Assembly: GCA_003222275.1 (NCBI GenBank)
Contig: QHVJ01000149.1
Location: 1 to 62,606, forward strand
DNA from: Acidobacteriota bacterium
GTDB lineage: Bacteria > Acidobacteriota > Vicinamibacteria > Fen-336
Reading direction: 5' to 3'
Length of the DNA: 62,606 bases
Made by a program: the position numbers and the translations under genes. Of the stretch, positions 7,817 through 21,720 are shown piece by piece (the stretch's first letter is position 1; each line of letters opens with the position of its first letter). A model generated the notes under the pieces. It searched no databases, was not told the origin of the DNA, and saw only the letters and a list, made by a program, of their open reading frames with translations.

Positions 7817-7994
7817 TCTCGCGTGGAGTGTTTCAGTTCTCGGGTTGCTCACGCCTGGCCCCCTCATTCAAAGAAGGATCGGAATCCGAGGTCCAACGAC
7901 CATCAGGTGAACTCCTGGACTCACGAAGGGAAAATCCGCATCGGCGGCCCGCGAGCATGACGAAGACCGATGTGGCAGGCGGGTGTGGCGGTGG

Positions 7995-8051
7995 GTGCTG
8001 GCGGCGACCAAAGATCATCACCTGCTCGACGAGCGCCGGCCGGCCGATTGA
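7995..8051 (+). pseudogene. Orphan 3' fragment of the SGNH hydrolase gene (duplication remnant)
   Basis: Reads VLAATKDHHLLDERRPAD* versus VLAAIEDNHLLDERRPAD* at 4030-4086; DNA similarity continues past the stop. Confidence 0.85.
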
Positions 8052-8082
8052 ACGCCGGCCGGCCGGCTCCTAATCGCATTGA

Positions 8083-9855
8083 TCAGTGCGCGATCGGCTT
8101 GACTCCCACGCCGGCAGCGCTCGCCCCCGTTCCCGGGTTGAAGCTGCCGAGTATCGCCCCCGACTGGATATCGAACTTGTAGATGTTGGAAGTGCTCGCG
8201 TTGGACGCCCAGAAGGTGCCGTCTCCCACGAGGTCCAGACCGCCCCAGTAGTTGTTCTCCCCGGGCGCGAAGTAGGTCTGGATCTGGTTCCCGGAGGAAT
8301 CCAGCCGCACGACCACTGACGTGTCGGCCACGAGGACGCCGCCGTCAGGCAGCGCCCGCAGGTGATAGGCCTCGTAGCCGGGCAACGGCTGGGTGTTGAA
8401 GAACGGAAGCTGCGTGTTCGTGCACACGTTGTACCGGTAGACGTCCTTGGTGCGCGAAGAGTAGAACATCGTGCAGCCGTCGGGACCGAGATCGATGTGG
8501 TCTGTCCCCTTCGATCCGACCGCGACGTCGAAGCTCGCCAGGAGGTTCCCGGCCGGGTCGAACTTCAGGATGTCTCCCGTGCCCTCCGACTGGCCGACGT
8601 AGACGTTGCCCTGGGCGTCGAAGGTCACCGATCCGGGATTGGTGTTGTAGCCGCTTCCGAAGGAGCCCAGCAGGTTGCCGCTGGGATCGAACCGCGCGAC
8701 CGTGTTGCCGGGGGGCGGGATCGTCCCGTACCAGTTGGGCGCATACAGGTACCCGGCGCTATCGAACGCCAGGCTGCTGATTTGCCCGTTGCCGTAAGGC
8801 GCCAGGTTCTGCCGGAACGACCCGTCCGCGTTGTGCCACTGGATGGTGCCGCCGAGCAGCGCCACGAACACGTCCCCCGGGTTGATCGCCGCGGTGGAAA
8901 CCGTGACCGTCACCGAGGCGGAGGTGCCGCTGTTGTTGGCCGCATCGCGAGCAATGGCGCGCAGCGTATGCGTGCCCGCGGTGGCGGTGGTGGTGTCCCA
9001 GCTGACCGAGTACGGAGCCGCGGTGTCTTCGGCACCGAGAGACGCGCCATCGAGCTGGAACCTCACTCCCGCGACACCCACGTTGTCCGTGGCGTTGGCG
9101 CTGACCGTGATCGTGCCCGTGACCGTCGCCCCCGCCGCCGGGGCGGTGATGCTGACGGTCGGAGGCGTAGTGTCGTTCGAGACGGTTACGGCGACGGAGG
9201 CGGACGTGCTGGTGTTGCCCGCGGCATCGCGCGCGACCGCGCTCAGGGTATGGCTGCCTTCGGCGGCGGTCGTGGTGTTCCACGTGACCGCGTACGGAGC
9301 GGCGGTGTCTTCTGCGCCGAGGGCGCCGCCATCCAGCCGGAACTGGACGCCGGCAACGCCGACGTCGTCCGAGGCACCGGCCGTGACCGTGACGGTGCTC
9401 GTGACCGTCGAGCCGGCGGTCGGGAAGGTGATCGCCACGTTCGGCGGCAGGTGGTCGTTGAAGACCGTGAACGTGACCGGCTCTGAGGGCCACCAGATGC
9501 CCAGCACGTCTTCCGCGACCGCCCTCAAGGTATGGGACCCGTTGCTGGCGGGAAACGTGTTCCACGCGACCGAATATGGAGCCGTCGCATCGGCCGATCC
9601 GAGGTTGTTGCCGTCGAGCTGGAACTGGACGCGCTGGACCGTCAGGAGACCGATGATGGTGACGTTCGCGCTGACCGCGATCGTGCCCCCGACGGTGGAC
9701 CCGGATGTCGGAGACGTCATGGTCACGACGAGGCTGCCCGCGCCGGGTAGCTGCGCCAGGGCCGGAGTCGGTGAGGCCCACGTCCAGGCAAAAATCCCCG
9801 CCAGCGCCGTCACCCACGCAATTGTCGCGCGGAAGCTTCCAGATCTCCGGGTCAT
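8083..9855 (-). CDS. Paralogous secreted protein with 3 Ig-like repeats and the same C-terminal propeller
   Basis: GGAGG RBS before ATG 9855; signal peptide ending AWTWASPTPALAQ; propeller nearly identical to that of 4115..7816. Confidence 0.9.
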   Translation of the reverse strand: MTRRSGSFRATIAWVTALAGIFAWTWASPTPALAQLPGAGSLVVTMTSPTSGSTVGGTIAVSANVTIIGLLTVQRVQFQLDGNNLGSADATAPYSVAWNTFPASNGSHTLRAVAEDVLGIWWPSEPVTFTVFNDHLPPNVAITFPTAGSTVTSTVTVTAGASDDVGVAGVQFRLDGGALGAEDTAAPYAVTWNTTTAAEGSHTLSAVARDAAGNTSTSASVAVTVSNDTTPPTVSITAPAAGATVTGTITVSANATDNVGVAGVRFQLDGASLGAEDTAAPYSVSWDTTTATAGTHTLRAIARDAANNSGTSASVTVTVSTAAINPGDVFVALLGGTIQWHNADGSFRQNLAPYGNGQISSLAFDSAGYLYAPNWYGTIPPPGNTVARFDPSGNLLGSFGSGYNTNPGSVTFDAQGNVYVGQSEGTGDILKFDPAGNLLASFDVAVGSKGTDHIDLGPDGCTMFYSSRTKDVYRYNVCTNTQLPFFNTQPLPGYEAYHLRALPDGGVLVADTSVVVRLDSSGNQIQTYFAPGENNYWGGLDLVGDGTFWASNASTSNIYKFDIQSGAILGSFNPGTGASAAGVGVKPIAH

Positions 9856-10028
9856 TTGCGCCTCCCCTTCGGCTACGCCGAACGGATGAACATTTAAAGA
9901 GGCCGATTCGACAATGAAAATATTGCGCATCGAGACAATTCTCCGCACCCTTTCAAGATACGAATGGGCGCGGCGAGGACAATCGGGAATACGCGGAAAC
10001 AGGCCTCGGGGTCGGTCTGAATCGACTC

Positions 10029-12110
10029 TCAGGGAGTTCCTGATGCCTCCGGCAGGGTCTCGAACGCGTCCACCCATACCCAGGTGCCGAGAGACAGCGG
10101 ATGGCGGCGCCCGGTGACCTCGACCGTCAGCGTGTGCTCCCCGGGCGGGAGGCCACTGAGCGTGTAGATGACCGCCTGCGCCTGGTCCACGGCGGCATAG
10201 GTGTCGATCTCGGCGCGCAAGGTCCCGTCGAGGTAGACCGCGGCGATGCCGGACCAGTTATTGGGGTGGCCGATCCAGCTCACCGCTCTCCCGGAGAAGC
10301 GGAAGCTGACCCGCGCGCCGGGCTCGAAGGTCAGCGCCGCGGTGTTCCCGCTGTTGGAGGCGTCCAGGTTCGGGTACCACGTACCGCTGTAGCTCGCGGC
10401 CGGGTCGTCCTGCTCCGTCCGCACGACCGCGTCGAAGGCATCCAGCCAGACCCAGGAGCCTCCGGAAAGCAGGTTGCGCGTGCCGGTGACCTCGATGTCC
10501 AGCGTGTGACTCCCCGCCCCGAGGTCGCTGGCCGAGAACAGGACCGACTGGGGCTGGGTCGACGAGGCGTAAGTGTCCACGGTCGACCTGAGCTGCCCAT
10601 CCACGGACACGCGCGCGATGCCCGACCAGGGGTCGCGGAGGCCGATCCAGCGCACCCCGTTGCCGGAGAAGGAGAACGTGCCGCGCGCGCCGGCATCCAT
10701 GCCCAGAACGGCGCTACCCCCGCTCTCGACGAACGCCTGGTTCCCATACCAGGGTCCGGAATAGCTCATCACGAACCCGTCGTCCTGCTCGTACCGTTCG
10801 CTCAGCGCCGAGGGAGACCCGGGATAGGACGCCGAGGTCGCGGCGACATCCATCAGGTATGCATCCGAGTAGTAGCTCGCATAGCCGAGCAGCGACTGAA
10901 GGCCATAGTTGCTGCTGAAGACGAGCCGGCGTCCGTCGTGGCTCACCGCGGCCCGTGGCATGTAGCTGTAGTCGTTGAACGGGCGGCTGCGGTGGTGGGC
11001 CAGCCGGCGCACCTCGGAGCCGTCCAGACGCACCTGCAGCACCTCGTCGGCGTAGGGCCGCCATTGGCCCGGGAGCGGGGCGGGATCGCCGGGGGCATAC
11101 GTACTTACGAAGAACCACCCGTTGCCGTCGGGTACCGAGATGTGCACGGCCAGACCCCAGTCCAACGAGAGCACGCACGTTCGCTGGGCGTCGGCCAGCC
11201 TGACCTTGACCACCGAGTTCTGGCACCCGGGAGGCGGCTGCGGATCGGCGGCGTTCACCCAGAGCAGCACCGGTTGGCCGTCGATGTCGCGCCCGACGTC
11301 CATGTGGCCCGTCGCGGGAGTGAGCTGGCGGAGGAAATTCATGTTGTGGTCGTATAGCTCCACCCCGTTGTAGCGGCCGGTCCCGGTCTGCAACCAGCCC
11401 ACCAGCACGTTGTCGTCGGGCGCGATCATGACCTGGTCGAAGGCGCGCCCGCCGATGTCGAGCAGTGGCCCCTTCGTGTCCGTGCTCAGCTCGTACACGA
11501 AGACGTCGCGGTCGTCCCCTACGAGGACGAAGTGGTCTCCATCGAAGCAGATGTCGGACTCGCCGCGGCCGCTGATCCGGGAGTACTCGGCGAACGTGTG
11601 CACGACCGAGCTGACACCGCTGGCGGCGTCGTAGCTCTTGAGGCTGTTTCCATAGACGGGGATGTAGTAGAGCAGGTTCGGATCACGCCGCGACCAGCGC
11701 GGCTCACTGGAGGCGGTGGCGTCCATGGGAAGGTCCTTCTGGTAGCGGCCCTCGCCGTCGTAGACGGCGAAGTAGCTGTGATGCACGAGGAGCAACCGCG
11801 AATCGTCCACGTTGAAGGGCGACATGGTCGAGTATTCGGTGGCGATGAAGGGGACGCTCCCGACGTTGCGGGAGTTCGGCTGGTTGAGCGCGTCGGATAT
11901 GCGGCGGATGGACGTCCCGAACACCGGATCCAGGTAGCTCTGGCCCGCCGCCGGCGGGACGAGGGTGAAGTAGTTCACCGGGATGCGGGCCTCCCGATCG
12001 TTCAAATAGGCGAAGGCGCCGTGCGGCGCGAGCAGCCACAGGGCAAACGGCACGAAGAGCCGCCTCCGATCACGCACGACGCGAAATGCCCGGGCGAGCA
12101 GCCGCGTCAC
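10029..12110 (-). CDS. Secreted beta-propeller protein with two C-terminal galactose-binding-like (CBM-like) domains
   Basis: Signal-like N-terminus; AVSHDGRRLVFSSNY TolB-like blade end; two EQDD...YSG.WY...SG..A...G....F.FSG..V.WIG repeats. GTG start overlaps the upstream TGA. Confidence 0.65.
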   Translation of the reverse strand: MTRLLARAFRVVRDRRRLFVPFALWLLAPHGAFAYLNDREARIPVNYFTLVPPAAGQSYLDPVFGTSIRRISDALNQPNSRNVGSVPFIATEYSTMSPFNVDDSRLLLVHHSYFAVYDGEGRYQKDLPMDATASSEPRWSRRDPNLLYYIPVYGNSLKSYDAASGVSSVVHTFAEYSRISGRGESDICFDGDHFVLVGDDRDVFVYELSTDTKGPLLDIGGRAFDQVMIAPDDNVLVGWLQTGTGRYNGVELYDHNMNFLRQLTPATGHMDVGRDIDGQPVLLWVNAADPQPPPGCQNSVVKVRLADAQRTCVLSLDWGLAVHISVPDGNGWFFVSTYAPGDPAPLPGQWRPYADEVLQVRLDGSEVRRLAHHRSRPFNDYSYMPRAAVSHDGRRLVFSSNYGLQSLLGYASYYSDAYLMDVAATSASYPGSPSALSERYEQDDGFVMSYSGPWYGNQAFVESGGSAVLGMDAGARGTFSFSGNGVRWIGLRDPWSGIARVSVDGQLRSTVDTYASSTQPQSVLFSASDLGAGSHTLDIEVTGTRNLLSGGSWVWLDAFDAVVRTEQDDPAASYSGTWYPNLDASNSGNTAALTFEPGARVSFRFSGRAVSWIGHPNNWSGIAAVYLDGTLRAEIDTYAAVDQAQAVIYTLSGLPPGEHTLTVEVTGRRHPLSLGTWVWVDAFETLPEASGTP

Positions 12111-13426
12111 GACTGCCTCTGGCTCTGTGGCAGCTCAGCGAGAAACAGGTCGCTGCGCCCGGAGCCGTTCATGTCCGACGTGAACAGGACGTAGCGACCA
12201 TCCGGAGACAACTTCGGGAAGCTCCAGTAGTTGTACGTTCCCGCCGTGTTGTAGGGGTGCCCGAGCAATCGACGCTGTCCGTTGGCGGTGATCAAGATCA
12301 TTCCTCCGGGAGCGAGCCAAGCGGATCCGGCCGGCATCAGGCTTCCGTAATGGCTGAAGAGGGCCCATTGGTCATCGGGACTGGCCGGGTTCTGGATCCA
12401 GTTCCCGTTGCCGTAGGTGAGGCTGCCGTTTGCGGGCCCGCCGATATTCACGCCGGAGTCGGGCACGTTCGGGGTGAACATCGTGAACTCGCCGGGCCAC
12501 GTCAGTCCCCAGTTCACGCCCATCCAGCGGTCCTTCAAGCTCGCGACATGCGCAAACTGCGGCGCGCGCGCGGGATCGCCGCCCGTGCTCCAGAGGACTG
12601 AGTTCGTGAGCCAGTCCCATACGATCAGCCCGTTCGGCGGCTTGTTCATGCTGACTCCCACGTATCGGCCGGCCCGGTCCACACGCGGTTCGTTCAGGTC
12701 GGCGTTGGTATACGTCTTCTTCGTGCCCGTGCTCGGCTCATAGCCAACGATCGTGTCCCCGTTGGCTCCGCGCAGCCAGACGAAGAACCCGTCCCTCTCG
12801 CTCTGGTGCAGCCAGGTCGGGCTGGAGTCGGTCACGGGCCATCCATTGCCGGGCGCTTCGTTCATCGATCGGATGTCGAAACGACGGATGGTCGTCCCGC
12901 CCGCCACGTACGCGTAGTAGGGGGTGGCCGGGTTGTTGGAGAAGGTGAACGACAGGCCGGTCCAGGGAGCGAGGATCCCCGTGAGCCGCCGCGGGTTGCT
13001 GACGCCGGTCCCGGGCGTGAAGTCCACGATCCACCATGGACCGCCCGACGCGCCGTTCTGCTGCATCAATATCGCGCGCGTGTTTCCGACGTACGGGAGA
13101 GACACTTCGTCGCCCCCTTCGGAATAATCGTGGCCCCAATCCGAGCCGGGAGCGGGATATGTCGCCGAGGTGATCTTGTAGATCCTGACGCTCGTCGTCG
13201 GATCGAGGTAGGTCTTGCCCGCGGCCAGGGATGGAATGTTGAGGGCGCCATAGGCCGCCGTCAGCGGCACCTGCAATGCTGTCGCCGCCGGCAAGAGCGT
13301 GGGATCCGGCAGCCCCGCCGCAGGGATCGGAGTCTCGGCCGGCACGTGGTCGCCGCAACCTGCGGCGGCGGGCACGAGCATCAGAAGCCCCACGGCCCAC
13401 CTCGAGGCGCATCGGGTCTGCTTCAT
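12107..13426 (-). CDS. Putative lipoprotein beta-propeller, unknown function
   Basis: Lipobox-like LLMLVPAAAGC; C-terminal FPKLSPDGRYVLFTSD blade; ATGA overlap at 13423-13426. Confidence 0.6.
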   Translation of the reverse strand: MKQTRCASRWAVGLLMLVPAAAGCGDHVPAETPIPAAGLPDPTLLPAATALQVPLTAAYGALNIPSLAAGKTYLDPTTSVRIYKITSATYPAPGSDWGHDYSEGGDEVSLPYVGNTRAILMQQNGASGGPWWIVDFTPGTGVSNPRRLTGILAPWTGLSFTFSNNPATPYYAYVAGGTTIRRFDIRSMNEAPGNGWPVTDSSPTWLHQSERDGFFVWLRGANGDTIVGYEPSTGTKKTYTNADLNEPRVDRAGRYVGVSMNKPPNGLIVWDWLTNSVLWSTGGDPARAPQFAHVASLKDRWMGVNWGLTWPGEFTMFTPNVPDSGVNIGGPANGSLTYGNGNWIQNPASPDDQWALFSHYGSLMPAGSAWLAPGGMILITANGQRRLLGHPYNTAGTYNYWSFPKLSPDGRYVLFTSDMNGSGRSDLFLAELPQSQRQS

Positions 13427-14088
13427 CGTTCGACCAGGTAGGTCCAGACGAGCTTCACCGACTCGAAGAGAAACGTCTTCGCGTAGCGCCGGCTGCGCCA
13501 CCAGCCGCGCGGCTCGAATTCACCGTCGTCCACGCCGTAGACGAAGATCCTGACGGGCCGCGGGGCATCCTTGAAGACCTGCCGCCAGATGTGCCGCGCC
13601 CGGCGCGTGTGGAAATTCGAAGTCACCACGATCACGCTGCGCCAGCCGTGCTCTTCCAGGCACGGGCGCAGGGCCCGCGCCTCCTCCAGCGTGGAGTCGG
13701 CGTTGTGCGGGCACAGGACCGCCCGGTCCGCCTGCTCCTTCCCGTACTCGCGCTCGAGATAGCGGCGCATGAGGTCGGGAACCCACTGGCCCCAGAACCT
13801 CACCTGGGCCGCACTGATGGCGAGGTTGCCGGCCCGCCCCTCCCGGAACAGCCTCAGCGCCTCCTCGCGGCGCGCCTGCGCAGCCCGATCGGATCCGGAC
13901 AGGACGACGAGCACGTCCGCGTTCGGCGGGAGCGGGTCGGGGGCCACCAGCAGGTCCCCTCCCCAACCGAGAATGCCGAGGAGACCCAGCAAGAGGAGCA
14001 GGAGGGTCGCGCTCGCGACGCGGCGGCAATGGCAGCCGCGCGCGGCGGCCGCGGCCGGCGTCAGCCGCCGCCATGTCAGGGTGGCCAC
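13423..14088 (-). CDS. YdcF/DUF218 (ElyC/SanA-like) family protein
   Basis: N-terminal TM; ADVLVVLSG, ADSTLEEA and VIVVTSNFHTRRA motifs. It is the C-terminal part of track ORF 13423..15204; GTG start inferred. Confidence 0.85.
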   Translation of the reverse strand: MATLTWRRLTPAAAAARGCHCRRVASATLLLLLLGLLGILGWGGDLLVAPDPLPPNADVLVVLSGSDRAAQARREEALRLFREGRAGNLAISAAQVRFWGQWVPDLMRRYLEREYGKEQADRAVLCPHNADSTLEEARALRPCLEEHGWRSVIVVTSNFHTRRARHIWRQVFKDAPRPVRIFVYGVDDGEFEPRGWWRSRRYAKTFLFESVKLVWTYLVER

Positions 14089-15665
14089 GAGGCCTCTCCC
14101 GGCGGCCGGCCCAGGAAATAAACGACGAAGCGACCGCAGGTGGGATCGTCGTCGTCGGGCCCGATGATCCTCTCGGTTCGGAACCGCTGCGCGACACCGG
14201 AGCCGAGGTCCGCGTCGGCCGCCTGGCGAACGAAGAGCGCGTCCACGGGGGCGCGGGCGATCCGCGCCAGAACGTTCTCGGACCCCGCCTCCGGCCGATA
14301 CGATCGCACCACGACCTCCGGGACGTAGTAATGGATGGCCGGCACGCAGGACCCGGGAACCAGGATCGACCGGAGGCGATCGCGCTGCCCGCTGACGAAG
14401 CTGACCGTGTCGCTTGCGCTGGGCGCGGTCGACGCGTCCCGCGCCGGCAATGCCCGAACCGCGCTCGCGAGCAGCAGCAGGAATCCTGCCGTCATCGCGG
14501 CCGGCGTCCACCGGCTCGGTCCCCGCCGCCGCCACCAATCGGCAAGGATCACCGCGCCCACCACGTAGAGGGCGGGCGGCGCCGAGGACATGTACCGTTC
14601 GGTGTCGCTCTTGAGCGCGATCAGGAGGATGAGGCCGGCGTAGAGGACGAAGGGTGCCAGCTCCGGGCGCGACCGGAATCTCGTCAGGGCATAGACACCG
14701 GCCGCCAGGCAGGCGAAGAGGATCGCGTACTCCAGCGGTGAGCCGCCGAGGCGGCTGGACCAGATGTCTCCGAGGCTCGCCTTTCCGAACGAATCCTTCC
14801 GCATCACGGCGAGGAAGGGCATCGCCAGGTACGCCTTGAGCATGGAAAGCTTGAACAACCCGGCGGGCCACAAGAGGGCGCAGATGCCCAGGAACAGGCC
14901 GATCAGCTTCGCCGCCAGCCCGCGCGTAGCCAGCTCCGGGTTCACGGCGAGAAGCCGTCGGCGCAGCCGCCAGCCGCAGAAGGCCAGGACGACGAAGAGA
15001 AGCACGCCGTATTCGAGGATGGAGAGCGAGACGGTGGCGCCCCCGACGGCGGCGAGGAGATATCGGGTTCGGCCGGTGATCAGGAACCGGGCGATGACGA
15101 ACAGCGTCAGGATCGCCACCCACGCGTACATCTGGTGCGTGCTCACGCCCAGCGCCGTCCGGATGTTGCCCACGCTGAACAGATAGGCCGACGAAGCGAT
15201 CCATGCCGCGGTACGGCCCTCCGGGCCGAGCAGCCAGATCAGGCCCACGAATATCGTGACGAAGGCGAGGAGATGGAAGACGAGGCCGGCCGCCCGGACG
15301 TGCGCCTCTTCGGTCGTCAGCCGGCTGACCAGCGCCAGCCAGTGGAAGTACAGGGGTCCGTGGTAGTGCCTGTAGAACGAGACGTCGTTGCGCAGGCGCA
15401 CGGACTCGGAGAGGTCCGTCCGATCGATCTGGTTCGAGAGGGCCCGGAGGCCGGTCCTCACGTAGGCGGGAAAAGACAGCGACGAGGTCTCGAGGTAGTT
15501 CTCGCGCAGTCCCATGCGGGCCGCCACCATGTAATCGGCCTCGTCGTACTGGAAGCGCATGCGCGGGGCGGCATCCACGAACAAGAAGAGGCAGACGGCG
15601 GCCCCGCCCAGGAGGAAGAGCAGGTCACCGATGCGTAGCGCGAGCGTCCGGCCGTTGTCCGGCAT
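14076..15665 (-). CDS. GT-C superfamily (PMT/ArnT-like) membrane glycosyltransferase
   Basis: Polytopic protein; YDEADY acidic motif after TM1; HGPLYF loop; soluble C-terminal tail. Confidence 0.7.
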   Translation of the reverse strand: MPDNGRTLALRIGDLLFLLGGAAVCLFLFVDAAPRMRFQYDEADYMVAARMGLRENYLETSSLSFPAYVRTGLRALSNQIDRTDLSESVRLRNDVSFYRHYHGPLYFHWLALVSRLTTEEAHVRAAGLVFHLLAFVTIFVGLIWLLGPEGRTAAWIASSAYLFSVGNIRTALGVSTHQMYAWVAILTLFVIARFLITGRTRYLLAAVGGATVSLSILEYGVLLFVVLAFCGWRLRRRLLAVNPELATRGLAAKLIGLFLGICALLWPAGLFKLSMLKAYLAMPFLAVMRKDSFGKASLGDIWSSRLGGSPLEYAILFACLAAGVYALTRFRSRPELAPFVLYAGLILLIALKSDTERYMSSAPPALYVVGAVILADWWRRRGPSRWTPAAMTAGFLLLLASAVRALPARDASTAPSASDTVSFVSGQRDRLRSILVPGSCVPAIHYYVPEVVVRSYRPEAGSENVLARIARAPVDALFVRQAADADLGSGVAQRFRTERIIGPDDDDPTCGRFVVYFLGRPPGEASWPP

Positions 15666-16663
15666 CAGGGTCGGAATTGAGACGGAACGAAGAGCCTATG
15701 GACGAGCGGCACGTCGACGATCAGCAGGAAGACCATCAGGGCGGCGCACGCCGTTACCCCGGCCATGAGAACGGGCTCCCGGTACAGGCCTTCCGGCCTC
15801 TGAGCGGCGCTGTTCTCCTTGAACCCCAGCGAGAGGTAGGTTGCCATGACGAGCGCGACCAGCGGGAAGGAGAGGATCAGCTCCAGGCGGTAGCGCATGA
15901 TGAACGCGCCCAGGAACAGCATCGCGTGCGCGGCGTAGAAGGTGATCGAGATCAGGAGCCGCTGCTCGTTGTAGTAGGCGAACGACTTCCGATAGGCCGC
16001 GCTGCGCGCCCCATCCCCGATCTCCCGGTACTCCGCGAAGCGCTTGATGGCCATGAAATAGCAGCCCACCATCCAGTAGCCGAGCAGGAGCGAGGACGGG
16101 GGAACCACGCTCGTTCCCGTGAGATACCAGCCCGCCAGCATCCGGAGCGGGTTGTTGACCGCCTCGGAGAGGACGTCGAGGTACGGCACGTCCTTCGTCC
16201 GCACGGGCGGGATGTTGTACAGGCAGCCCATGACCCACAGGGCGAGCAGGGTGCCCGCGAAAGGCAGCGAGACCTTCACGCCCATCGCGACTCCCGCGAG
16301 CATGAGAGCCATCCACTGGACATACGCCAGCGGTATCGAGACCGCCCCGCAGGCCACCGGCCGGCGGCACTTCACCGGGTGGTGGCGGTCGAAGGGGCCG
16401 TCGAGCACCTCGTTGATCACGTAGTTGCTCGAGGTGACGAGGCAGATCGCCAAGAAGCCGATGACGAGCGGCAACGGGTCGAGGGCCGACCGTGCCGCCC
16501 TGTCGACCGACAACGCCACCACGATTCCCGGCAGGACGAAGACGTTCTTGATCCAGTGGTCCACGCGCAGGATGCGCAGATGACCCGCGAGCGTCGGATG
16601 GCGCAGCTCGGCGGGCGCCAAGGGCGCGCGCTCGTAGAGGTGTACGTTCGCTTTCGTGCTCAT
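15665..16663 (-). CDS. UbiA-family polyprenyl-phosphate phosphoribosyltransferase (DPPR synthase-like)
   Basis: RVDHWIKNVFV, SSNYVINEVLDGPFDRHHPVKCRRPVACG and AIKRFAEY motifs typical of the Rv3806c-like subfamily. Confidence 0.85.
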   Translation of the reverse strand: MSTKANVHLYERAPLAPAELRHPTLAGHLRILRVDHWIKNVFVLPGIVVALSVDRAARSALDPLPLVIGFLAICLVTSSNYVINEVLDGPFDRHHPVKCRRPVACGAVSIPLAYVQWMALMLAGVAMGVKVSLPFAGTLLALWVMGCLYNIPPVRTKDVPYLDVLSEAVNNPLRMLAGWYLTGTSVVPPSSLLLGYWMVGCYFMAIKRFAEYREIGDGARSAAYRKSFAYYNEQRLLISITFYAAHAMLFLGAFIMRYRLELILSFPLVALVMATYLSLGFKENSAAQRPEGLYREPVLMAGVTACAALMVFLLIVDVPLVHRLFVPSQFRP

Positions 16664-16686
16664 GACGGCAGCTCCATTTTTCGGGA

Positions 16687-17385
16687 TCAGCCGATGAATT
16701 CGACCAACCGACCCAAAGAGGGAACCGAGACGCAGCCGGGCCGGATCCGCGGTCGATGGCGCGGGCCGATGATGGCGCAGGCCACTCCCGCGCGACGGGC
16801 GGCCTCCGCGTCCACCTCGGGCCGGTCTCCGACGTAGAGCGCCTCTTCGTTCGAGACTCCGAGTCGGCGCAGCGCAACCTCGAGAACGCGCGGATGGGGC
16901 TTGAACCGCTGTACCTCCGCATCCTGGGCGGTCACGACGACTTCGAAGAACCCCGCGAGGCCCATGGCGTGGAGCTTCTCGGCCGCGGGATAGTCGGAGC
17001 AGGCGCCCAGGCGCAATGCGCGGCGGGTGGCCGCCGCGATCAGCTCGGGAAGACCTTCACGCACCGACGGGCGAAGCAGGCCGAGCGGCTCCTCTTCCAT
17101 CCAGCGGCGCACGCAGGACCTGAGCTCCGCGGGCGGGGCGCCGGTCCATTTGCAGGCGAGGCCGACCTGCTGCTCCGCGAGATCGCCGCCGTCCGCCGGC
17201 CCGCCGCGCAGCCGCTCCTGGGCCTGGCGATAGGCCTGCAGCCATCGGAGCGTCCGGAGCCCGGCGAGCGGCCGGTCGACGTGCGCCCGCAGCAGACGGG
17301 CGAACATCGCCCGGCGGACGGGGTCCTGCCGGTACAGCGTTCCGTCGACGTCGAAGACGATGGCTTTCAGGCGGGCGGGATTCAT
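16687..17385 (-). CDS. HAD-family hydrolase (phosphatase)
   Basis: FDVDGTLY, CSDYP, FKPHP and YVGDRPEVD motifs I-IV. Confidence 0.9.
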   Translation of the reverse strand: MNPARLKAIVFDVDGTLYRQDPVRRAMFARLLRAHVDRPLAGLRTLRWLQAYRQAQERLRGGPADGGDLAEQQVGLACKWTGAPPAELRSCVRRWMEEEPLGLLRPSVREGLPELIAAATRRALRLGACSDYPAAEKLHAMGLAGFFEVVVTAQDAEVQRFKPHPRVLEVALRRLGVSNEEALYVGDRPEVDAEAARRAGVACAIIGPRHRPRIRPGCVSVPSLGRLVEFIG

Positions 17386-17409
17386 GGCCTTCGAGAAACC
17401 GGTCGGATG

Positions 17410-18462
17410 TCAGGCGGAGCGTGGCTCTTGCAGACGAGCAGGCGTTGCCGGCGCCGCTGAGCCGGAGAGCCGCTCCGGCGGAGCCCAGTCGCGGGCCAGC
17501 GTGTAGCGAAGGAGGCCCGCCGCAAAACCGAGGCCGTGACTGACGTGGAGCACGGGAAAGATCGCCCACACGACCGCGGCGGTGGCGACGCCGCCCGCAC
17601 CGGCCACGCGCAAGGCCTCGGCGCCGGTGGCGAGGGCGTAGACCGCGAGGGCGAATGGAGCCAACGGGTGCAGGCGGGGGGTCGCCAGGAGAGCGACCGC
17701 CACCGCCAACATCAAGAAGGGAAGGGCCGGCCGGAGGGTCGTGAGCGCACCGTGCTTCAGGAACGTGCGCGCGCGACCGACCCCATATCGGAAGTACTGT
17801 CTCGCCAGGGCCGAGAACGAGCGCCGGGGGTAGTAATTAACGACGATTTCGCGGCTCAGGTAGATCCTTCCCCCCCGGGCCAGCAGGCGCTGGTTCAGCT
17901 CGGCGTCCTCGTTCGTGACCGCGCGGGGATCGTAGAGGCCGACCGTCTCGAACACCCGGCGACGAAAGGCACCGAGGAAGACGGTGTCCACGAAACCCTC
18001 GTTCTCCGCCGATCGATACCTCGCCCCCCCCGCCGCCAGGGGGCTCGCGAGCGCGGCGCAGAGGGCCCTCTGGAAGAAGGTCTTCGCTTCCGCACGCTGG
18101 GCGCCCCCCACATTGTCCGCCCCGGTCGATTCGAGCACCTCGACGCACTTGCGCACGTAGTCCGACCGATAGTCGCAGTGCGCGTCCATCCGCACGATCA
18201 CGTCGCCGCGCGCCTGCTTCAAGATGGCGTTGAGCCCGGCGGCCTGGATCCGCTCGGGGTTGTCGATGATTCGGATCCGGTCGTCGGCGGCGGCCAGCCG
18301 GCGGAGCACGTCGCGCGTCCCGTCGGCGCTCCGGCCGTCCGCGACCAGGATCTCGAGCTGCTCGGGAGGGTAATCCTGGGCGAGCACGCTGCGAACGCAG
18401 CTCTGGATGGAGTCTCGCTCGTTGAGGCACGGGATCGCGATCGTCGCCAGGGGCCAGCTCAT
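17410..18462 (-). CDS. GT2 glycosyltransferase (ExoA-like)
   Basis: IAIPCLNE, VADGRSADGT, VRMDAHC and TNEDAELN motifs; C-terminal TMs; ATGA overlap. Confidence 0.9.
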   Translation of the reverse strand: MSWPLATIAIPCLNERDSIQSCVRSVLAQDYPPEQLEILVADGRSADGTRDVLRRLAAADDRIRIIDNPERIQAAGLNAILKQARGDVIVRMDAHCDYRSDYVRKCVEVLESTGADNVGGAQRAEAKTFFQRALCAALASPLAAGGARYRSAENEGFVDTVFLGAFRRRVFETVGLYDPRAVTNEDAELNQRLLARGGRIYLSREIVVNYYPRRSFSALARQYFRYGVGRARTFLKHGALTTLRPALPFLMLAVAVALLATPRLHPLAPFALAVYALATGAEALRVAGAGGVATAAVVWAIFPVLHVSHGLGFAAGLLRYTLARDWAPPERLSGSAAPATPARLQEPRSA

Positions 18463-19622
18463 CCGGTGGCCTCCAGCGACAGAAGTCGCGTGTCCCGGAG
18501 CTCTCCGGCCAGGACCGCCACCACGCGCTCGGCGGCCTTCCCGTCCCAGAACGTCGGCGCGCGCCCCCCGCGCGGCATCCCCCGCGCCTCGTCGAACGCG
18601 CGGAGGATCCCGTCGCGGCTGGTGCCCGCCAGGATGTTGGTCCCCTCCGACACCGTCACCGGCCGCTCGGTGTTTGCGCGCAGGGTCACGCACGGCACGC
18701 CCAGTACCGTCGTCTCCTCCTGGATGCCGCCGGAGTCGGTCAGGACGACCCTGGCTTCCGATTGCAGGCGGACGAACTCCAGGTACCCGACCGGAGGCGT
18801 GAGCTTCCACCGCGACGGATCGAGCGAGAGGCTCGCTTCTTCGAGCCGCCGGCGCGTCCGGGGGTGGAGCGGGAACACCAGGGGCAGGCGCGACGCGATC
18901 TCGTCGAGCGTCGAGAGGAGGCCACGGAGCGCTCCCGGATCGTCGACATTGCTGGGCCGGTGGAGGGTGACGAGCCCGTACGCTCCGGCGCCCACGCCGA
19001 GGTCGTCGAGGATTCCCGACGTCGCCGCTCCCGCGCGAGCGGCCAGCAGCGTGTCGATCACCACGTTGCCCACGAAGAAGACCTTCTCTCGCGACGACCC
19101 CTCCCGGGCCAGGTTCGCAAGCCCCGAGCGCTCCGACACGAAGAGGAGGTCCGAGACCGCGTCGGTCAGCTTGCGGTTGACTTCCTCGGGCATGTCTTCG
19201 TCGAAGGAGCGCAGCCCGGCCTCCACGTGGGCGACGATCGGTCGACTACGGCTTCCACGACCCCAGTCAAAGGGCTCGCGAAGGCTGAACTTGGCGGCGG
19301 CCAGGGCGCAGGCCAGCGTCGAGTTGACGTCCCCGACCACGAGCACCACCTGCGGCTGCTCGTCCTCGAGCACCGCCTCGAACCGGCGCATGATCTCCGC
19401 CGTCTGGGACGCGTGGGAGCCGGAGCCCACCTCCAGCTCGATGTCGGGCACGGGCATTCGGAGCTGGCGGAAGAAGATCCCGGAGAGGTCCGCATCGTAG
19501 TGCTGACCCGTGTGGACGAGCTTCGTGCGGAAGAGCGGATGCTCGGCGAGGCACCTCATGAGGGCGGCGACCTTCACGAAGTTCGGCCGCGTGCCGGCGA
19601 CGCACAGGACCTTGACGCTCAT
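18459..19622 (-). CDS. wecB: UDP-N-acetylglucosamine 2-epimerase (non-hydrolysing)
   Basis: AGTRPNFVK, VHTGQHYD, VVGDVNST, HVEAGLRS, PEEVNR and TDSGGIQEE motifs. Confidence 0.95.
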   Translation of the reverse strand: MSVKVLCVAGTRPNFVKVAALMRCLAEHPLFRTKLVHTGQHYDADLSGIFFRQLRMPVPDIELEVGSGSHASQTAEIMRRFEAVLEDEQPQVVLVVGDVNSTLACALAAAKFSLREPFDWGRGSRSRPIVAHVEAGLRSFDEDMPEEVNRKLTDAVSDLLFVSERSGLANLAREGSSREKVFFVGNVVIDTLLAARAGAATSGILDDLGVGAGAYGLVTLHRPSNVDDPGALRGLLSTLDEIASRLPLVFPLHPRTRRRLEEASLSLDPSRWKLTPPVGYLEFVRLQSEARVVLTDSGGIQEETTVLGVPCVTLRANTERPVTVSEGTNILAGTSRDGILRAFDEARGMPRGGRAPTFWDGKAAERVVAVLAGELRDTRLLSLEATG

Positions 19623-20827
19623 GACCCCACACTCGCTCGGACTGGCCGCGCACGAAGCGCGGGCTCGGACTCCCGGCGCTTCCGCGCCTTGACGTCTTGT
19701 ACGATCCGCCCGATCTCCTCGGCCTTCCCCTCCCATGTTTCCGTACGCATGGTGTCGCTTCTCCTCCGTCGCTGCTCGCCCGAGCCCTCGGCCAGCGCGG
19801 CCTCACAGGCGGCGAGGAAGCCCTCGCGATCCGCGGCCACCCGACATACGGAAGAGTAGGATGCCGCCTCCGGGATGGCGGTGGAAACCGTGGGCACGCC
19901 GGCGCTCAGGTATTCGCGCAGCTTGATCGGGTTGACGTTGTGGGTCAGCTCGTTCAGGACGAAAGGGCAGACCGCGACGTCGAAGGCCTTGCAATACTGA
20001 GGAAGGTCCGCGTACGGTCGCCGCCCCAGCACGTGCACGTTGGGATACCGGCCAAAGCCGGACACGTCCACGGTCGCCTTGCCGACGAGCACCATCGACC
20101 ACTCGGGCCGGCGTTCCGCCACCCAGGCCAGGAGGTCCAGGTCGATCCAGCGCTCGATCCATCCGAAGAAACCGATGACCGGCCGCGGCAGGGTGGCGAT
20201 CTCGGGAGCGGGTCGCATCGTCTCGTCGAGGGCCTTCGCGAAATGGGCGTGGTCCACACCGTGGGAGACGAGATGGGTCCTGGGGTTGAAGGCCCTTTTC
20301 CGCTCGAGGAGCGAGCGTGACGTCGTGAACACGACGTCGGCCTTGCGGCACAGCACCTGCTCCGAGGCGGCCACGCGCTCCCCGTCGACGTGCGCGAAGG
20401 CCGACCACTCATCGGTACAGTAATAGACGGCCAGCGACTCACCGAGGCCCATGTACTCGGCGGTGGTCGGGAGGAAGCTCCAGAGCTGGAAATCCTTCAT
20501 CCCCAGACGCCGCCGGAGGGCCGCGAGGGTGAGGGCGAGGAGCCTCCGGTTCAGCGCGGTGGCTACGGGGTTGTGCGGAAACGGAAGGACGAGCGGGGTG
20601 TAGATCCAGAGATTGTCGGCCACCTGCTTCGGGCCCTTCAGGAAGCTCGCGAGCTTGCGGCCGATCTTGCGGAGATCCCGGCCGCTGGCGAAGTCCGGCC
20701 GCCGGGTGCAGACGGAGTTCAGCCACAACACGCGGTTGTCCCGGGCGAGCGCCCTCATGACGTGGTTGCTGCTCGTCGGGTCCTCGGCCCAGTCCTTCGT
20801 GAAGCAAACGATGTTTTCGCCCGTCAT
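19619..20827 (-). CDS. GT-B glycosyltransferase (GT4, TuaH-like)
   Basis: YYCTDEW, VSHGVD, IGFFG and NPIKLREYLSAG motifs. Confidence 0.88.
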   Translation of the reverse strand: MTGENIVCFTKDWAEDPTSSNHVMRALARDNRVLWLNSVCTRRPDFASGRDLRKIGRKLASFLKGPKQVADNLWIYTPLVLPFPHNPVATALNRRLLALTLAALRRRLGMKDFQLWSFLPTTAEYMGLGESLAVYYCTDEWSAFAHVDGERVAASEQVLCRKADVVFTTSRSLLERKRAFNPRTHLVSHGVDHAHFAKALDETMRPAPEIATLPRPVIGFFGWIERWIDLDLLAWVAERRPEWSMVLVGKATVDVSGFGRYPNVHVLGRRPYADLPQYCKAFDVAVCPFVLNELTHNVNPIKLREYLSAGVPTVSTAIPEAASYSSVCRVAADREGFLAACEAALAEGSGEQRRRRSDTMRTETWEGKAEEIGRIVQDVKARKRRESEPALRARPVRASVGS

Positions 20828-21720
20828 GATTGGCTCACGGTTCTGTCAGGCCGTTTCCTGCCGTCGGGCGGCGGCACCGATGCCTTGGCGGGATGGCCGT
20901 ACATCACGCAGCTGCCGCCGAGCCTCTTCACCCCGGGCAGGGAGAGCAGCCCGTAGTCGAGGAAGTCGATGCCGTTCACGATGGCTCGCCGGAGGGGCGA
21001 GGACCTCTCGTAGTTGAATTTGATCAGGATGAACTGGTCGAGGCGCCCGAACAGCGAGTAGTGCCGCACCCGCAGGTCGGGTACGTACCGCCGGATGAGC
21101 TCGACCTCCGACCGCACCAGGGGGCGTTCGTCCGGCGTCGCCTCGGTCTCGACCGGGATCATGAACCGAAGCTGCCGCAGGGGGTGGAAGAGGTTCACCG
21201 GCTCTGCGAACACGAGCAGGCCTTCGGGCTTGACCCAGCGAGTCAAGCGATCGAGGACCAGCTCCAGATCGTCGAGCACGTGATGGAGGATCCCATCGGC
21301 CCAGACGAGATCGAAGGTGTCCGGCGGCAGGTCGGCCGTCTCGAGGGGAGCCGCGATCAGCGAGAGGCGATCCGACACCCCGTTGACTTCCCCGCGACGC
21401 CGAGCGAGCTCGATGGCCTTGGGCGAGACGTCGATGCCGGTCACGTTCGCCCCCATCTTTGCGAGCATCACCGCGTTGAGGCCGTCGCCGCAGCCCACGT
21501 CCAGCAGGCTCTTGCCCCCGAGATCGCCCATGACCCGGAAACGGAACTCCTTGTTGAAGCGCCGGCGCAGCACCGGGCGGGTGTAGCGCCGAAACGCGAG
21601 GGGATCGATCGGCAACGCGTCATCGCTCGATCTCTGGGCCCAGCCGTCGAAGAAGCTGGCCTCTCGTCTCCAGCGCTCCTCGCGGGGTTTGACGGCCTGT
21701 ACGGCGGAGTCTGTCGACAT
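20824..21720 (-). CDS. Class I SAM-dependent methyltransferase
   Basis: LLDVGCGDG, GIDVS, FDLVWADGILHH. Confidence 0.9.
   Translation of the reverse strand: MSTDSAVQAVKPREERWRREASFFDGWAQRSSDDALPIDPLAFRRYTRPVLRRRFNKEFRFRVMGDLGGKSLLDVGCGDGLNAVMLAKMGANVTGIDVSPKAIELARRRGEVNGVSDRLSLIAAPLETADLPPDTFDLVWADGILHHVLDDLELVLDRLTRWVKPEGLLVFAEPVNLFHPLRQLRFMIPVETEATPDERPLVRSEVELIRRYVPDLRVRHYSLFGRLDQFILIKFNYERSSPLRRAIVNGIDFLDYGLLSLPGVKRLGGSCVMYGHPAKASVPPPDGRKRPDRTVSQS

Follow-up and report, generated by a model that had tools for sequence, protein, structure and literature searches.

The genes for a HAD phosphatase, a UbiA-family enzyme and a GT-C fold glycosyltransferase found within an exopolysaccharide (EPS) locus of the analysed DNA (62.6 kb, referred to as the window) probably constitute, on balance, a variant, with split genes, of the pathway for extracytoplasmic pentofuranosylation, with ribofuranose (Ribf) as the transferred sugar and the EPS as its acceptor. 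The original prediction knew of no characterised route of this kind, but one had already been demonstrated for the O1 antigen of Citrobacter youngae by biochemistry and genetics, which showed that α-Ribf is added to the polysaccharide in the periplasm (Kelly et al., PNAS 2024, PMC11127046). The parts described there are a polyprenyl-phosphoribose synthase of the UbiA type that also carries a HAD phosphatase domain (ORF15, PRP-PPPRS), a small flippase (ORF14) and a GT-C enzyme (ORF12, GT136). The cassette investigated here would be an undescribed variant of the Citrobacter route that is common in soil bacteria.

Organization and conservation of the cassette

All four genes of the predicted row HAD, UbiA, GT-C and YdcF were found on the minus strand, together with adjoining genes for a glycosyltransferase and a lipoprotein:

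17410-18450, minus strand: GT2 glycosyltransferase with a membrane anchor; 24 nt separate it from the HAD gene downstream (PF00535, E 3.9e-29)
16687-17385, minus strand: HAD phosphatase
15665-16663, minus strand: UbiA-family enzyme
14076-15665, minus strand: GT-C fold glycosyltransferase
13423-14088, minus strand: DUF218/YdcF protein, membrane-anchored
12107-13426, minus strand: predicted lipoprotein (MKQTRCASRWAVGLLMLVPAAAGC...) with a weak β-propeller (PD40) signal

The HAD, UbiA, GT-C and DUF218 genes are tightly packed. HAD and UbiA are separated by 23 nt, UbiA and GT-C overlap in an ATGA, the overlap between GT-C and DUF218 measures 13 nt, and the stop codon of DUF218 overlaps the ATG of the downstream lipoprotein gene, again as ATGA. 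The five genes from HAD to the lipoprotein are translationally coupled, and the lipoprotein is a member of the cassette's transcription unit. On the same strand, a CE2_N-domain protein and then two Big_7 proteins are encoded 3′ of it. The surroundings form a Wzx/Wzy EPS locus with PGT (Bac_transf), Wza, Wzc, Wzy and a MOP flippase, as well as several GT4 and GT2 genes.

Conservation was assessed in 79 species-level loci carrying the UbiA subfamily of the window. In 32 of the 79 loci, from at least five phyla, a HAD ortholog (41-61% identity) precedes the UbiA ortholog at a distance of no more than 400 nt, and 62 of the 79 had a large multi-TM protein no more than three genes from UbiA. Because both partners recur beside this subfamily, the HAD-UbiA-GT-C arrangement is no chance juxtaposition. 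Families represented among 90 such multi-TM neighbours were PMT_2 (35), PMT (12), Mannosyl_trans4 (4) and GT87 (2). The DUF218 (YdcF/SanA/ElyC-like) protein had also been counted as part of the module, but tblastn detected homologs near UbiA orthologs in none of the 79 loci. This 221 aa protein with an N-terminal membrane anchor (PF02698, E 8e-16) has its start placed at GTG 14088, 13 nt before the GT-C stop, and its GC content by codon position (0.72/0.51/0.90) is clearly that of a coding sequence; it is a putative accessory protein, co-translated with the cassette but not conserved along with the module.

The UbiA-family enzyme

The UbiA-superfamily membrane enzyme (332 aa; PF01040, E 2.6e-22) had its best NCBIfam matches with the HAD-UbiA fusion family NF006088 (105 bits, cut-off 351) and with decaprenyl-phosphate phosphoribosyltransferase models, including the DPPR synthase model NF008977 (94 bits, cut-off 234), and missed every curated NCBIfam cut-off. 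The closest solved structure by sequence was Rv3806c of Mycobacterium tuberculosis (PDB 8j8j, E 2.1e-11, 24% identity). This structure was also the best fold match of the AlphaFold2 model (pLDDT 85.4; 8j8j_A, TM 0.67/0.76), although by fold alone the prenyltransferase AfUbiA fitted almost as well. Ten of the 12 PRPP/Mg ligands of Rv3806c, as defined in PMC10994848, are kept in the UbiA enzyme: R22 as R33, K28 as K39, Y70 as Y81, N73 as N84, D77 as D88, D81 as D92, K87 as K98, R90 as R101, Y138 as Y149 and K143 as R155. Gln135, which contacts the ribose O3, is replaced by Gly and Tyr157 by Val, and Glu occupies the second position of the NDxxD motif. The phosphoribose-binding sites have been reported to differ between Rv3806c and the UbiA superfamily and not to be conserved (PMC10994848); K39 and Y81, which correspond to the 5′-phosphate binders Lys28 and Tyr70, align with a gap and a Phe in AfUbiA. 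Among 27 members of the UbiA subfamily most PRPP/Mg residues are invariant, and the equivalents of K39 and Y81 are invariant in the subfamily. The retained contacts and the match to Rv3806c in both sequence and fold agree with the predicted likeness to DPPR synthase, and the enzyme is proposed, from its sequence, to be a PRPP-using polyprenyl-phosphate 5-phosphoribosyltransferase (PPPRS). It represents a separate, highly conserved subfamily, present in at least 381 species of several soil phyla.

The missed cut-offs and the near-equal fit of AfUbiA would also suit an enzyme that is no phosphoribosyltransferase but either a prenyltransferase for another acceptor or a user of a different phosphosugar. 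The GT-C protein would then use a polyprenyl-P-hexose made by the membrane GT2 next to the cassette, and the HAD protein would serve unrelated sugar-phosphate metabolism. Systems of the Gtr or ArnC/ArnT type are the model for such a supply of GT2-made donor to a GT-C enzyme. This alternative is regarded as unlikely: it conflicts with the invariance of the phosphoribose-specific Lys28 and Tyr70 equivalents, and the recurrent adjacency of HAD and UbiA points to a shared pathway.

The HAD phosphatase

The stand-alone HAD-IA phosphatase (232 aa) matched PF00702 (E 2.3e-23) and PF13419 (E 9.9e-18) and exceeded the cut-off of the HAD-IA model TIGR01549 (45.8 versus 23.3 bits). Its predicted identity was borne out by four intact catalytic motifs in the translation (FDVDGTLY, LGACSD, KPHP and VGDRPEVD) and by its co-conservation with UbiA. 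Its proposed role is that of a polyprenyl-P-ribose-5-phosphate 5-phosphatase, functionally analogous to both Rv3807c and the PRP domain of ORF15. The protein is not of the PRP type; no family-level homology to the fused HAD domain of NF006088 proteins was found, and an artificial HAD+UbiA fusion gained no score against NF006088.

The GT-C protein and the adjacent GT2

The 529 aa GT-C protein matched no Pfam or NCBIfam model and belongs to a small family without a Pfam model of its own; distant homologs match PF13231 (PMT_2). Its assignment to the GT-C fold was confirmed by an AlphaFold2 model (pLDDT 88.5, pTM 0.90), for which the best 42 Foldseek matches in the PDB were all GT-C enzymes, including STT3, ArnT (5ezm, TM 0.57/0.56), ALG12, AftA, PglB and EmbA/B/C. 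Straight after TM1, residues Y40, D41, E42, D44 and Y45 are invariant, as are R99, H100 and H102, and the DE-x-DY motif after TM1 is likely the catalytic centre. The modelled fold is consistent with the proposed role as a periplasmic pentofuranosyltransferase using polyprenyl-P-ribose as donor.

Relatives with at least 36% identity adjoin the same UbiA subfamily, and members of the clade were found beside UbiA in loci L001, L005/L013, L008, L009, L012, L018, L023 and L091. More distant relatives pair with a small GT2 or a GT2-GtrA fusion, not with UbiA, and a membrane GT2 also recurs beside the clade of the window. L008, L012 and L018 have the GT2 gene next to the GT-C gene; in L001, as in the window, HAD and UbiA separate the two. 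The membrane GT2 beside the cassette might supply another donor, as the polyprenyl-P-hexose alternative would have it. Against this, no GT2 accompanies the UbiA-GT-C pair in L005/L013, L023 and L091, and the GT2 of the window is most similar to PcManGT (6yv7, E 5.3e-14); its PDB matches at E≤0.001 include neither a GtrB nor a DPMS structure. Its score against the ArnC model was 29 bits (cut-off 529). The GT2 may build an acceptor sugar; synthesis of a second lipid-linked donor is less likely.

The transferred sugar

In C. youngae and related systems the donor remains Ribf without an epimerase, while an SDR epimerase yields xylofuranose (Xylf) and DprE1/E2 yield arabinofuranose (Araf) (PMC11127046). 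The 62.6 kb window yielded no epimerase of the DprE1 or SDR type: none of the scanned ORFs with a coding-type GC3 pattern matched the FAD_binding_4/ALO, adh_short or NAD-dependent epimerase families, in agreement with the lack of a FAD oxidoreductase/SDR pair noted originally. The sole FAD enzyme among the scanned ORFs was an acyl-CoA dehydrogenase (34407-35849). Epimerases are likewise no regular neighbours of the UbiA subfamily in the 79 other genomes: FAD_binding_4/ALO and adh_short were absent from the 25 commonest families among 137 soluble UbiA neighbours, of which six had an NAD-dependent epimerase domain. Since epimerases are lacking in the window and not typical near the UbiA subfamily, ribofuranose itself is most likely the transferred sugar, and the predicted transfer of ribofuranose by the GT-C enzyme is retained as the simplest reading.

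The lipid-linked ribose might instead be epimerised by enzymes encoded elsewhere (DprE1/DprE2-like, giving arabinofuranose, or an ORF13-like SDR, giving xylofuranose), with the GT-C enzyme transferring the epimer. Epimerases act on the polyprenyl-P-ribose intermediate in all characterised systems, and GT136 ORF12 takes Ribf and Xylf donors alike (PMC11127046); the six neighbours with an epimerase domain and the visible genome part of 62.6 kb would also accommodate this possibility. It is nevertheless judged improbable, as known systems, including L007, cluster the epimerase genes with those of the synthase and the GT-C enzyme, yet the window contains none, and FAD_binding_4/ALO and adh_short are not among the 25 commonest families near the UbiA subfamily in the 79 genomes.

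Proposed pathway and acceptor

The predicted scheme, from polyprenyl-P-ribose-5-P via polyprenyl-P-ribose to transfer of ribofuranose by the GT-C enzyme, is plausible because UbiA retains most PRPP/Mg contacts and best matches Rv3806c. At the cytoplasmic face, UbiA would move 5-phosphoribose from PRPP to polyprenyl phosphate, presumably undecaprenyl-P, as its active-site residues suggest, giving polyprenyl-P-β-D-ribofuranose-5-P. Gene linkage and intact motifs point to the HAD-IA phosphatase as the enzyme that would strip the 5-phosphate. Polyprenyl-P-Ribf would then be flipped by a protein encoded outside the cassette; the 62.6 kb window showed no small flippase of the SMR/EamA or GtrA type. 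At the periplasmic face the GT-C enzyme, with its modelled fold, would transfer the pentofuranose to the EPS of the surrounding locus as a side-chain decoration.

Among the candidate acceptors this EPS is the most likely. With the donor pathway unchanged, the GT-C enzyme could also O-glycosylate the secreted, Thr/Ser-rich Big_7 Ig-domain proteins or the downstream lipoprotein, parallels being Pseudomonas pilin arabinosylation and PMT-type protein O-mannosylation. The translational coupling of the lipoprotein gene, followed by the CE2_N-domain and Big_7 genes, would fit a protein acceptor, as would a Big_7 protein two genes away in L001, the PMT_2 matches of distant GT-C relatives and the DPPRS ortholog proposed as the donor source for Araf glycosylation of pilin in P. 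aeruginosa (PMC11127046). L001 is, however, a close relative and not independent evidence, and Big_7 or lipoprotein genes are not shared by UbiA-subfamily neighbourhoods in other phyla. The cassette also lies within a Wzx/Wzy EPS locus that is complete, and the sole demonstrated Ribf system modifies a polysaccharide (PMC11127046), so that a protein acceptor appears rather doubtful.

Comparison with known systems

Like the C. youngae O1/O2 system, the cassette lies inside a polysaccharide locus and combines a GT-C transferase with a HAD-superfamily 5-phosphatase and a UbiA-fold phosphoribosyltransferase that has the Asn/Asp motif for Mg-PRPP; both lack DprE1/E2, which in C. youngae results in Ribf. 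In the window, however, the phosphatase stands alone as a HAD-IA protein, whereas in C. youngae it is a fused N-terminal HAD domain, and UbiA represents a distinct subfamily that stays below the cut-off of the family, with N-E-x-x-D in place of N-D-x-x-D. The window also lacks a nearby small EamA/SMR-like flippase, its GT-C protein is of a different sequence family and has no CBM, and the cassette sits in a Wzx/Wzy pathway, in contrast to the ABC-transporter-dependent one of C. youngae. In the one available canonical split system (L007) the protein in the GT-C position is PF19510/DUF6044, to which the GT-C protein of the window had no match.

The mycobacterial decaprenyl-P-arabinose pathway likewise starts with an enzyme, Rv3806c, that is the closest solved structure and has most PRPP ligands in common; dephosphorylation follows, and GT-C enzymes consume the donor outside the cytoplasm. 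It differs by DprE1/DprE2, a PAP2-type phosphatase (Rv3807c) in place of HAD, and the GtrA-like Rv3789, and the GT-C protein of the window is no closer to Emb/Aft than to ArnT and STT3. D-arabinofuranosylation of the Pseudomonas aeruginosa PA7 pilin involves a PPPRS, DprE1/E2 homologs and TfpW (PMC11127046); in this Gram-negative system, too, a DPPRS-like enzyme provides polyprenyl-P-pentose for a periplasmic GT-C enzyme, but with epimerases and a protein acceptor. Gtr (GtrA/GtrB/GtrC) and ArnC/ArnT systems similarly make a monophosphoryl-polyprenyl sugar in the cytoplasm, which a GT-C enzyme uses once it has been flipped, and ArnT is among the best structural matches of the GT-C protein. The GT2 adjacent to the cassette is unlike GtrB, DPMS and ArnC; the donor synthase of those systems is a GT2 using a nucleotide sugar, whereas the conserved partner in the window is the UbiA/HAD pair.

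Organization of the gene cassette

Gene calls, together with Pfam matches for the HAD, UbiA and DUF218 proteins, bore out the original prediction of four genes in a row; they are packed on the minus strand at 13.4-17.4 kb of the window, which has a G+C content of approximately 69%:

16687-17385, minus strand, HAD hydrolase of 232 aa (PF00702, E 2.3e-23; PF13419, E 9.9e-18)
15665-16663, minus strand, UbiA-superfamily protein of 332 aa (PF01040, E 2.6e-22)
14076-15665, minus strand, polytopic membrane protein (GT-C) of 529 aa, no Pfam or NCBIfam match
13423-14088, minus strand, DUF218 protein of 221 aa, GTG start placed at 14088 (PF02698, E 8e-16)

The HAD and UbiA genes are separated by 23 nt, an ATGA is common to the end of the UbiA gene and the start of the GT-C gene, and the GTG of the DUF218 gene is positioned 13 nt inside the 3' end of the GT-C gene. 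At the downstream border, an ATGA at 13426-13423 combines the DUF218 stop with the ATG of a lipoprotein gene. The cassette junctions thus show translational coupling. The DUF218 gene has a GC content by codon position (0.72/0.51/0.90) that fits a genuine coding sequence of this genome. Coupling also runs beyond the cassette, with a 4-nt overlap between the lipoprotein gene (12107-13426) and the gene that follows it. The flanking genes are:

17410-18450, membrane GT2, 24 nt upstream of the HAD gene
10029-12110, protein of 693 aa, CE2_N-type beta-sandwich match close to the C-terminus, next after the lipoprotein gene
8083-10077, protein with three Big_7 domains, after the gene of the 693-aa protein
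4115-7867, protein with ten Big_7 domains, further on

Genes for WecB, a TuaH-like GT4, a methyltransferase and an asparagine synthase are located upstream of the membrane GT2. A terminator and promoter scan of positions 7800-24000 was uninformative, with counts at shuffle expectation.

The surrounding exopolysaccharide locus

The window represents one large Wzx/Wzy-type exopolysaccharide (EPS) locus, which also contains several GT4 genes and, downstream, the Big_7 Ig-repeat proteins. The following genes were assigned:

51647-53188, Wzz/GNVR protein
50788-51645, P-loop kinase
within ORF 49238-51037, priming phosphoglycosyltransferase (Bac_transf/CoA_binding_3)
48631-49464, Wza
46151-47623, Wzy_C polymerase or ligase
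38555-40951, 28669-30600 and 21756-23660, three AsnB-like asparagine-synthase paralogs
36762-38372, AMP-dependent ligase (AMP-binding enzyme ORF)
34407-35849, acyl-CoA dehydrogenase
33216-34376, FemAB-type GNAT
within 30608-33427, MOP flippase

The presence of the AsnB paralogs, the acyl-CoA dehydrogenase, the AMP-dependent ligase and the FemAB-type GNAT hints at amidated or acylated polymer sugars. A CofD-family gene (2-phospho-L-lactate transferase-like; PF01933, E 5e-93), unusual in an EPS locus, was observed between Wzy and Wza at 47485-48630. The ORF at 41986-45324 (about 1,100 aa, GC3 0.87) has a short C-terminal Hydrolase_3 (HAD-IIB) stretch as its sole Pfam match, its N-terminal 900 or so aa being without one; its true start is uncertain, because the GT4 gene 44916-46346 overlaps it at the 5' end. 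In the 1,246-aa product of ORF 23668-27408, heparinase II/III N- and C-terminal domains are confined to the C-terminal half. A homolog of this gene holds the equivalent position in L001, a locus from another genome, and the protein may be a lyase trimming the EPS.

Relationship to the Citrobacter youngae O1 pathway

The original prediction had presented the route as one not known to be characterised, which proved incorrect, since it is already described for C. youngae O1 (Kelly, Duong, Nothof, Lowary and Whitfield, PNAS 2024; PMC11127046). In that system ORF15 combines a HAD (PRP) domain at the N-terminus with a UbiA-type synthase. It forms farnesyl-P-ribofuranose (farnesyl-P-Ribf) from PRPP in vitro, and the 5-phosphate form builds up with its D18A phosphatase mutant (PMC11127046). 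ORF14 is a predicted small flippase, and ORF12, the GT-C enzyme founding GT136, transfers alpha-Ribf to the polymer; the SDR ORF13 turns the system to xylofuranose, and DprE1/E2 homologs accompany arabinofuranose systems (PMC11127046).

From this comparison, the window cassette is predicted to work like the C. youngae system, with five differences. The phosphatase is fused in ORF15, whereas that of the window is separate and from another HAD subfamily. The window UbiA belongs to a subfamily other than that of ORF15, with an N-E-x-x-D motif, and the GT-C likewise belongs to another sequence family. Unlike the C. youngae system with its ORF14, the window has no dedicated flippase, and its host pathway, in contrast to that of C. 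youngae, is Wzx/Wzy. Acidobacteria and Myxococcota are not mentioned in the accessible part of the supplementary text of PMC11127046, and a full-text literature search on GT136 and polyprenyl-phosphate phosphoribose synthases (PPPRS) yielded no later description of the window UbiA subfamily.

A search of a phage collection with the UbiA protein gave one match, L007 (MT837543.1, 'Bacteriophage sp.', unverified), a 6.6 kb low-GC scaffold from a human faecal sample. It encodes a UbiA protein (233 bits to NF008977), a HAD-IB, an EamA/SMR-like 118-aa protein, an SDR epimerase and a 565-aa DUF6044 membrane protein. L007 is a complete canonical split pentofuranose system; it is not a relative of the window cassette and served as a comparator.

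The UbiA protein as a predicted phosphoribosyltransferase

The top curated model for the UbiA protein was NF006088, the HAD-UbiA fusion family (105.0 bits), followed by the NCBIfam decaprenyl-phosphate phosphoribosyltransferase models. Its scores against the latter set (NF008976, NF008977 and NF008978) are 93.8 (NF008977), 81.0 and 67.4 bits, at equivalog cut-offs of 234, 207 and 474; the NF006088 score, too, is far under its cut-off. By sequence, the closest of the solved structures was Rv3806c, the PRPP-dependent synthase of Mycobacterium tuberculosis (8j8j, E 2.1e-11), followed by the prenyltransferase AfUbiA (E 1.3e-7). The AlphaFold2 model (pLDDT 85.4, pTM 0.82) also had 8j8j as its top Foldseek match (E 1.8e-8, TM 0.67/0.76, 24% identity); the fold alone does not discriminate, because AfUbiA followed close behind.

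The cryo-EM structure of Rv3806c identified Asn73 and Asp77 as Mg ligands, Arg22, Lys87, Arg90, Lys143 and Tyr138 as pyrophosphate ligands, Gln135 as the ribose ligand and Lys28, Tyr70 and Tyr157 as ligands of the 5'-phosphate; according to the same work, the UbiA superfamily does not share the phosphoribose-binding sites of Rv3806c (PMC10994848). Residues R33, K39, Y81, N84, D88, D92, K98, R101, Y149 and R155 of the window protein aligned with PRPP/Mg ligand positions of Rv3806c in a HMMER alignment, the exceptions being Gln135, Tyr157 and Asp74, which are replaced by Gly146, Val169 and Glu85. At the positions of Lys28 and Tyr70, AfUbiA showed a gap and Phe, respectively. Across 27 members of the subfamily, R33, K39, Y81, N84, E85, D88, D92, K98 and R101 were invariant. 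The first Asp-rich motif is accordingly N-E-x-x-D, not the N-D-x-x-D of the superfamily, with the Glu present in 27/27 members, whereas Rv3806c and the L007 enzyme have Asp at this position. At residue and fold level the protein resembles the UbiA-fold synthase of the C. youngae type, with a predicted conserved Asn/Asp Mg-PRPP site. It represents a distinct subfamily and, judged from its sequence, is very probably a PRPP-dependent polyprenyl-phosphate phosphoribosyltransferase.

The HAD phosphatase and the DUF218 protein

The HAD protein keeps all four HAD motifs (FDVDGTLY, LGACSD, KPHP and VGDRPEVD) and belongs to subfamily IA, TIGR01549 being above cut-off and the best match TIGR02253-like. 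Assignment to the PRP type, the domain fused N-terminally in ORF15/NF006088 proteins, was rejected on three grounds. An artificial concatenation of HAD and UbiA scored 106.3 bits against NF006088, compared with 105.0 for UbiA alone; in a BLASTP comparison with the HAD portion of a true HAD-UbiA fusion (L030:5541-7094, 544 bits to NF006088), the alignment was limited to the DxDGT motif; and the best 120 matches of a homolog search were exclusively stand-alone HADs. Its intact catalytic motifs and its co-conservation with UbiA indicate that the HAD protein is likely a functional analogue of the PRP domain.

The DUF218 protein was rejected as a core member of the module, since no homolog was found near UbiA in any other locus examined, and is treated as accessory. 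In the literature, ElyC and SanA are tied only indirectly to undecaprenyl-linked intermediates.

The GT-C enzyme

A word-limited homolog search revealed 27 relatives of the GT-C protein, the more distant of which carry PF13231 (PMT_2), and a profile search of 1.84 billion cluster representatives gave 303 matches at E<=1e-30 and 1406 at E<=1e-3. The family is real but small, and has no Pfam model of its own. For the AF2 model (pLDDT 88.5, pTM 0.90), the 42 best Foldseek PDB neighbours were all GT-C glycosyltransferases, including STT3, ArnT (TM 0.57/0.56), ALG12, AftA, AglB, PglB, EmbA/B/C, AftD, AftB and Pmt. The predicted fold assignment is considered sound, and according to its model the 529-aa protein corresponds to the GT-C-fold transferase of the C. 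youngae system. An acidic D41-E42-x-D44-Y45 motif follows TM1. In ORF12 of GT136, residues D31, E34, H106 and R349 are essential, and Y35 and Y350 also contribute (PMC11127046); the D-x-x-[DE]-Y spacing after TM1 of the window protein resembles D31..E34-Y35, as a resemblance only. In contrast to the window GT-C, the protein at the GT-C position of L007 has a Pfam match, PF19510/DUF6044, which may be the Pfam counterpart of GT136.

Epimerases, flippases and the adjacent GT2

Domain scans of the ORFs agreed with the original prediction that no DprE1/E2 pair is present within the 62.6-kb window. FAD_binding_4/ALO (DprE1), adh_short (DprE2) and NAD-dependent epimerase domains were not detected in window ORFs with coding-type GC3. 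This differs from the mycobacterial DPA pathway, which has both DprE1 and DprE2.

No small ORF14-like (ArnE/F/EmrE-like) flippase was found in the window. Three or more hydrophobic segments in ORFs of at least 80 aa were observed only in the GT-C, UbiA, MOP flippase, Wzy, phosphoglycosyltransferase and Wzc proteins and in ORF 36762-38372, and tblastn of small TM neighbours from other loci against the window gave no match. Proteins of 121-125 aa without a Pfam match adjoin UbiA or GT-C in several Bryobacterales-type loci:

L008:9557-9922, small protein
L012:3829-4194, small protein
L091:1915-2280, small protein
L005:12493-12870, small protein

Those of L008, L012 and L005 have 3-4 hydrophobic segments. 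The small proteins could be an unrecognised flippase, and the window encodes no homolog of them.

The adjacent membrane GT2 might possibly act as the donor synthase itself, as in Gtr/ArnC-ArnT systems, which combine a GtrB/ArnC/DPMS-like GT2 synthase with a GtrA-type flippase, but neither was recognised in the window. The best PDB match of the GT2 was 6yv7, no GtrB or DPMS structure matched at E<=0.001, and the score against ArnC (NF007986) was 29 bits at a cut-off of 529; a GtrB-like role was thus without support from PDB or NCBIfam matches. A GtrA-like ORF was not found in the window either.

Predicted function

The most likely function of the cassette, in which we have moderate confidence, would be periplasmic ribofuranosylation via polyprenyl-P-Ribf, probably of the EPS of the locus; co-transcribed secreted proteins are a possible alternative acceptor, and epimerases encoded outside the window might change the sugar that is transferred. 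The mechanism itself has been described before; what is new is the variant and how widely it occurs in soil phyla. Ribofuranosylation by this cassette would also pose the question by what means the donor crosses the membrane without a dedicated flippase gene.

Distribution of the UbiA subfamily and its neighbours

UbiA homologs number thousands, and the best 120 were all at least 64% identical. In a scan of one genome per species, the subfamily was present in at least 381 species, with a Bryobacterales MAG as the best match (74%). It was observed, among others, in Bryobacterales, Blastocatellia, Terriglobales, Vicinamibacterales, Gemmatimonadaceae and Polyangiaceae, and also in Chthonomonadales, Thermoguttaceae, Phycisphaerales, Latescibacterota, Entotheonella and one Acidimicrobiales MAG.

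For neighbourhood counts, 79 loci could be analysed. In 32 of these, UbiA is preceded by an ortholog of the window HAD (41-61% identity) that ends no more than 400 nt upstream, and in three more the ortholog lies at a distance of 1.0-2.6 kb. Proteins of at least 380 aa with at least six hydrophobic segments were encoded within three genes of UbiA in 62/79 loci, directly adjacent in 33. Among such large multi-TM neighbours (90 in all) there were matches to PMT_2 (35), PMT (12), Mannosyl_trans4 (4), GT87 (2), PTPS_related (2) and YfhO (1), and only a handful of transporters. Methyltransferases (10), GT4 (8), NAD-dependent epimerases (6) and GT2 (6) were the commonest families among 137 soluble neighbours; FAD_binding_4/ALO and adh_short were outside the 25 commonest, and neither an ORF13-like SDR nor a DprE1/DprE2 epimerase is typical of these neighbourhoods. 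Small proteins with 3-4 TM segments were rare.

On the GT-C side, the homologous protein P0008 in L001 lies in the order GT2-HAD-UbiA-GT-C, and in L091, with P0011, GT-C and UbiA are adjacent. The matches P0004, P0034 and P0152 come from contigs of equal length, and the same is true of P0009, P0035 and P0160. Relatives of at most 35% identity were found beside a GT2-GtrA fusion, beside a small GT2, or alone. The window GT-C clade is the UbiA-coupled branch of its family. Iterative HMM expansion of this family over all neighbours of UbiA orthologs stopped at 11 proteins, and the GT-Cs neighbouring UbiA orthologs belong to many families. Taken from both sides, UbiA is therefore the conserved core, HAD-IA a frequent partner, and the GT-C varies.

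We tentatively suggest that the window might be one instance of an undescribed polyprenyl-P-ribose pathway that is widespread in soil phyla (Acidobacteriota, Gemmatimonadota, Myxococcota, Armatimonadota, Planctomycetota and Latescibacterota), although this broader reading is held with rather low confidence. Such a pathway would have its own UbiA subfamily, at least 60% identical across phyla and with the N-E-x-x-D motif, a recruited HAD-IA, which might be a fourth independent solution for 5-dephosphorylation, and no dedicated epimerases or flippases, and it would feed many unrelated GT-Cs. If this is true, the envelope glycans and EPS of these phyla would commonly contain ribofuranose or a derivative (e.g. 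methylated) that has gone unrecognised. The putative UbiA/HAD-IA donor cassette to which the data point is large and strongly conserved, with at least 381 species represented, and the window UbiA subfamily with an adjacent GT-C could serve as a marker pair for predicting ribofuranosylated glycans from genomes. To our knowledge, mammals have no pentofuranoses, and in mycobacteria their branch of this chemistry serves as a drug target. According to the Citrobacter work (PMC11127046), the ribose branch is found in O antigens of Gram-negative bacteria; the present finding would extend it to Wzx/Wzy exopolysaccharides of uncultured soil bacteria.

Class I SAM methyltransferases were the commonest soluble neighbours of the subfamily (10/137), and the loci L006 and L020 show the order HAD-UbiA-methyltransferase; some lineages may methylate their lipid-linked pentose. 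In one Acidobacteriaceae MAG, the ORF15-type fusion L030:5541-7094 was found within about 3 kb of a window-type UbiA (L030:9917-10945), and each adjoins large multi-TM proteins, an arrangement suggesting two adjacent lipid-linked pentose systems.
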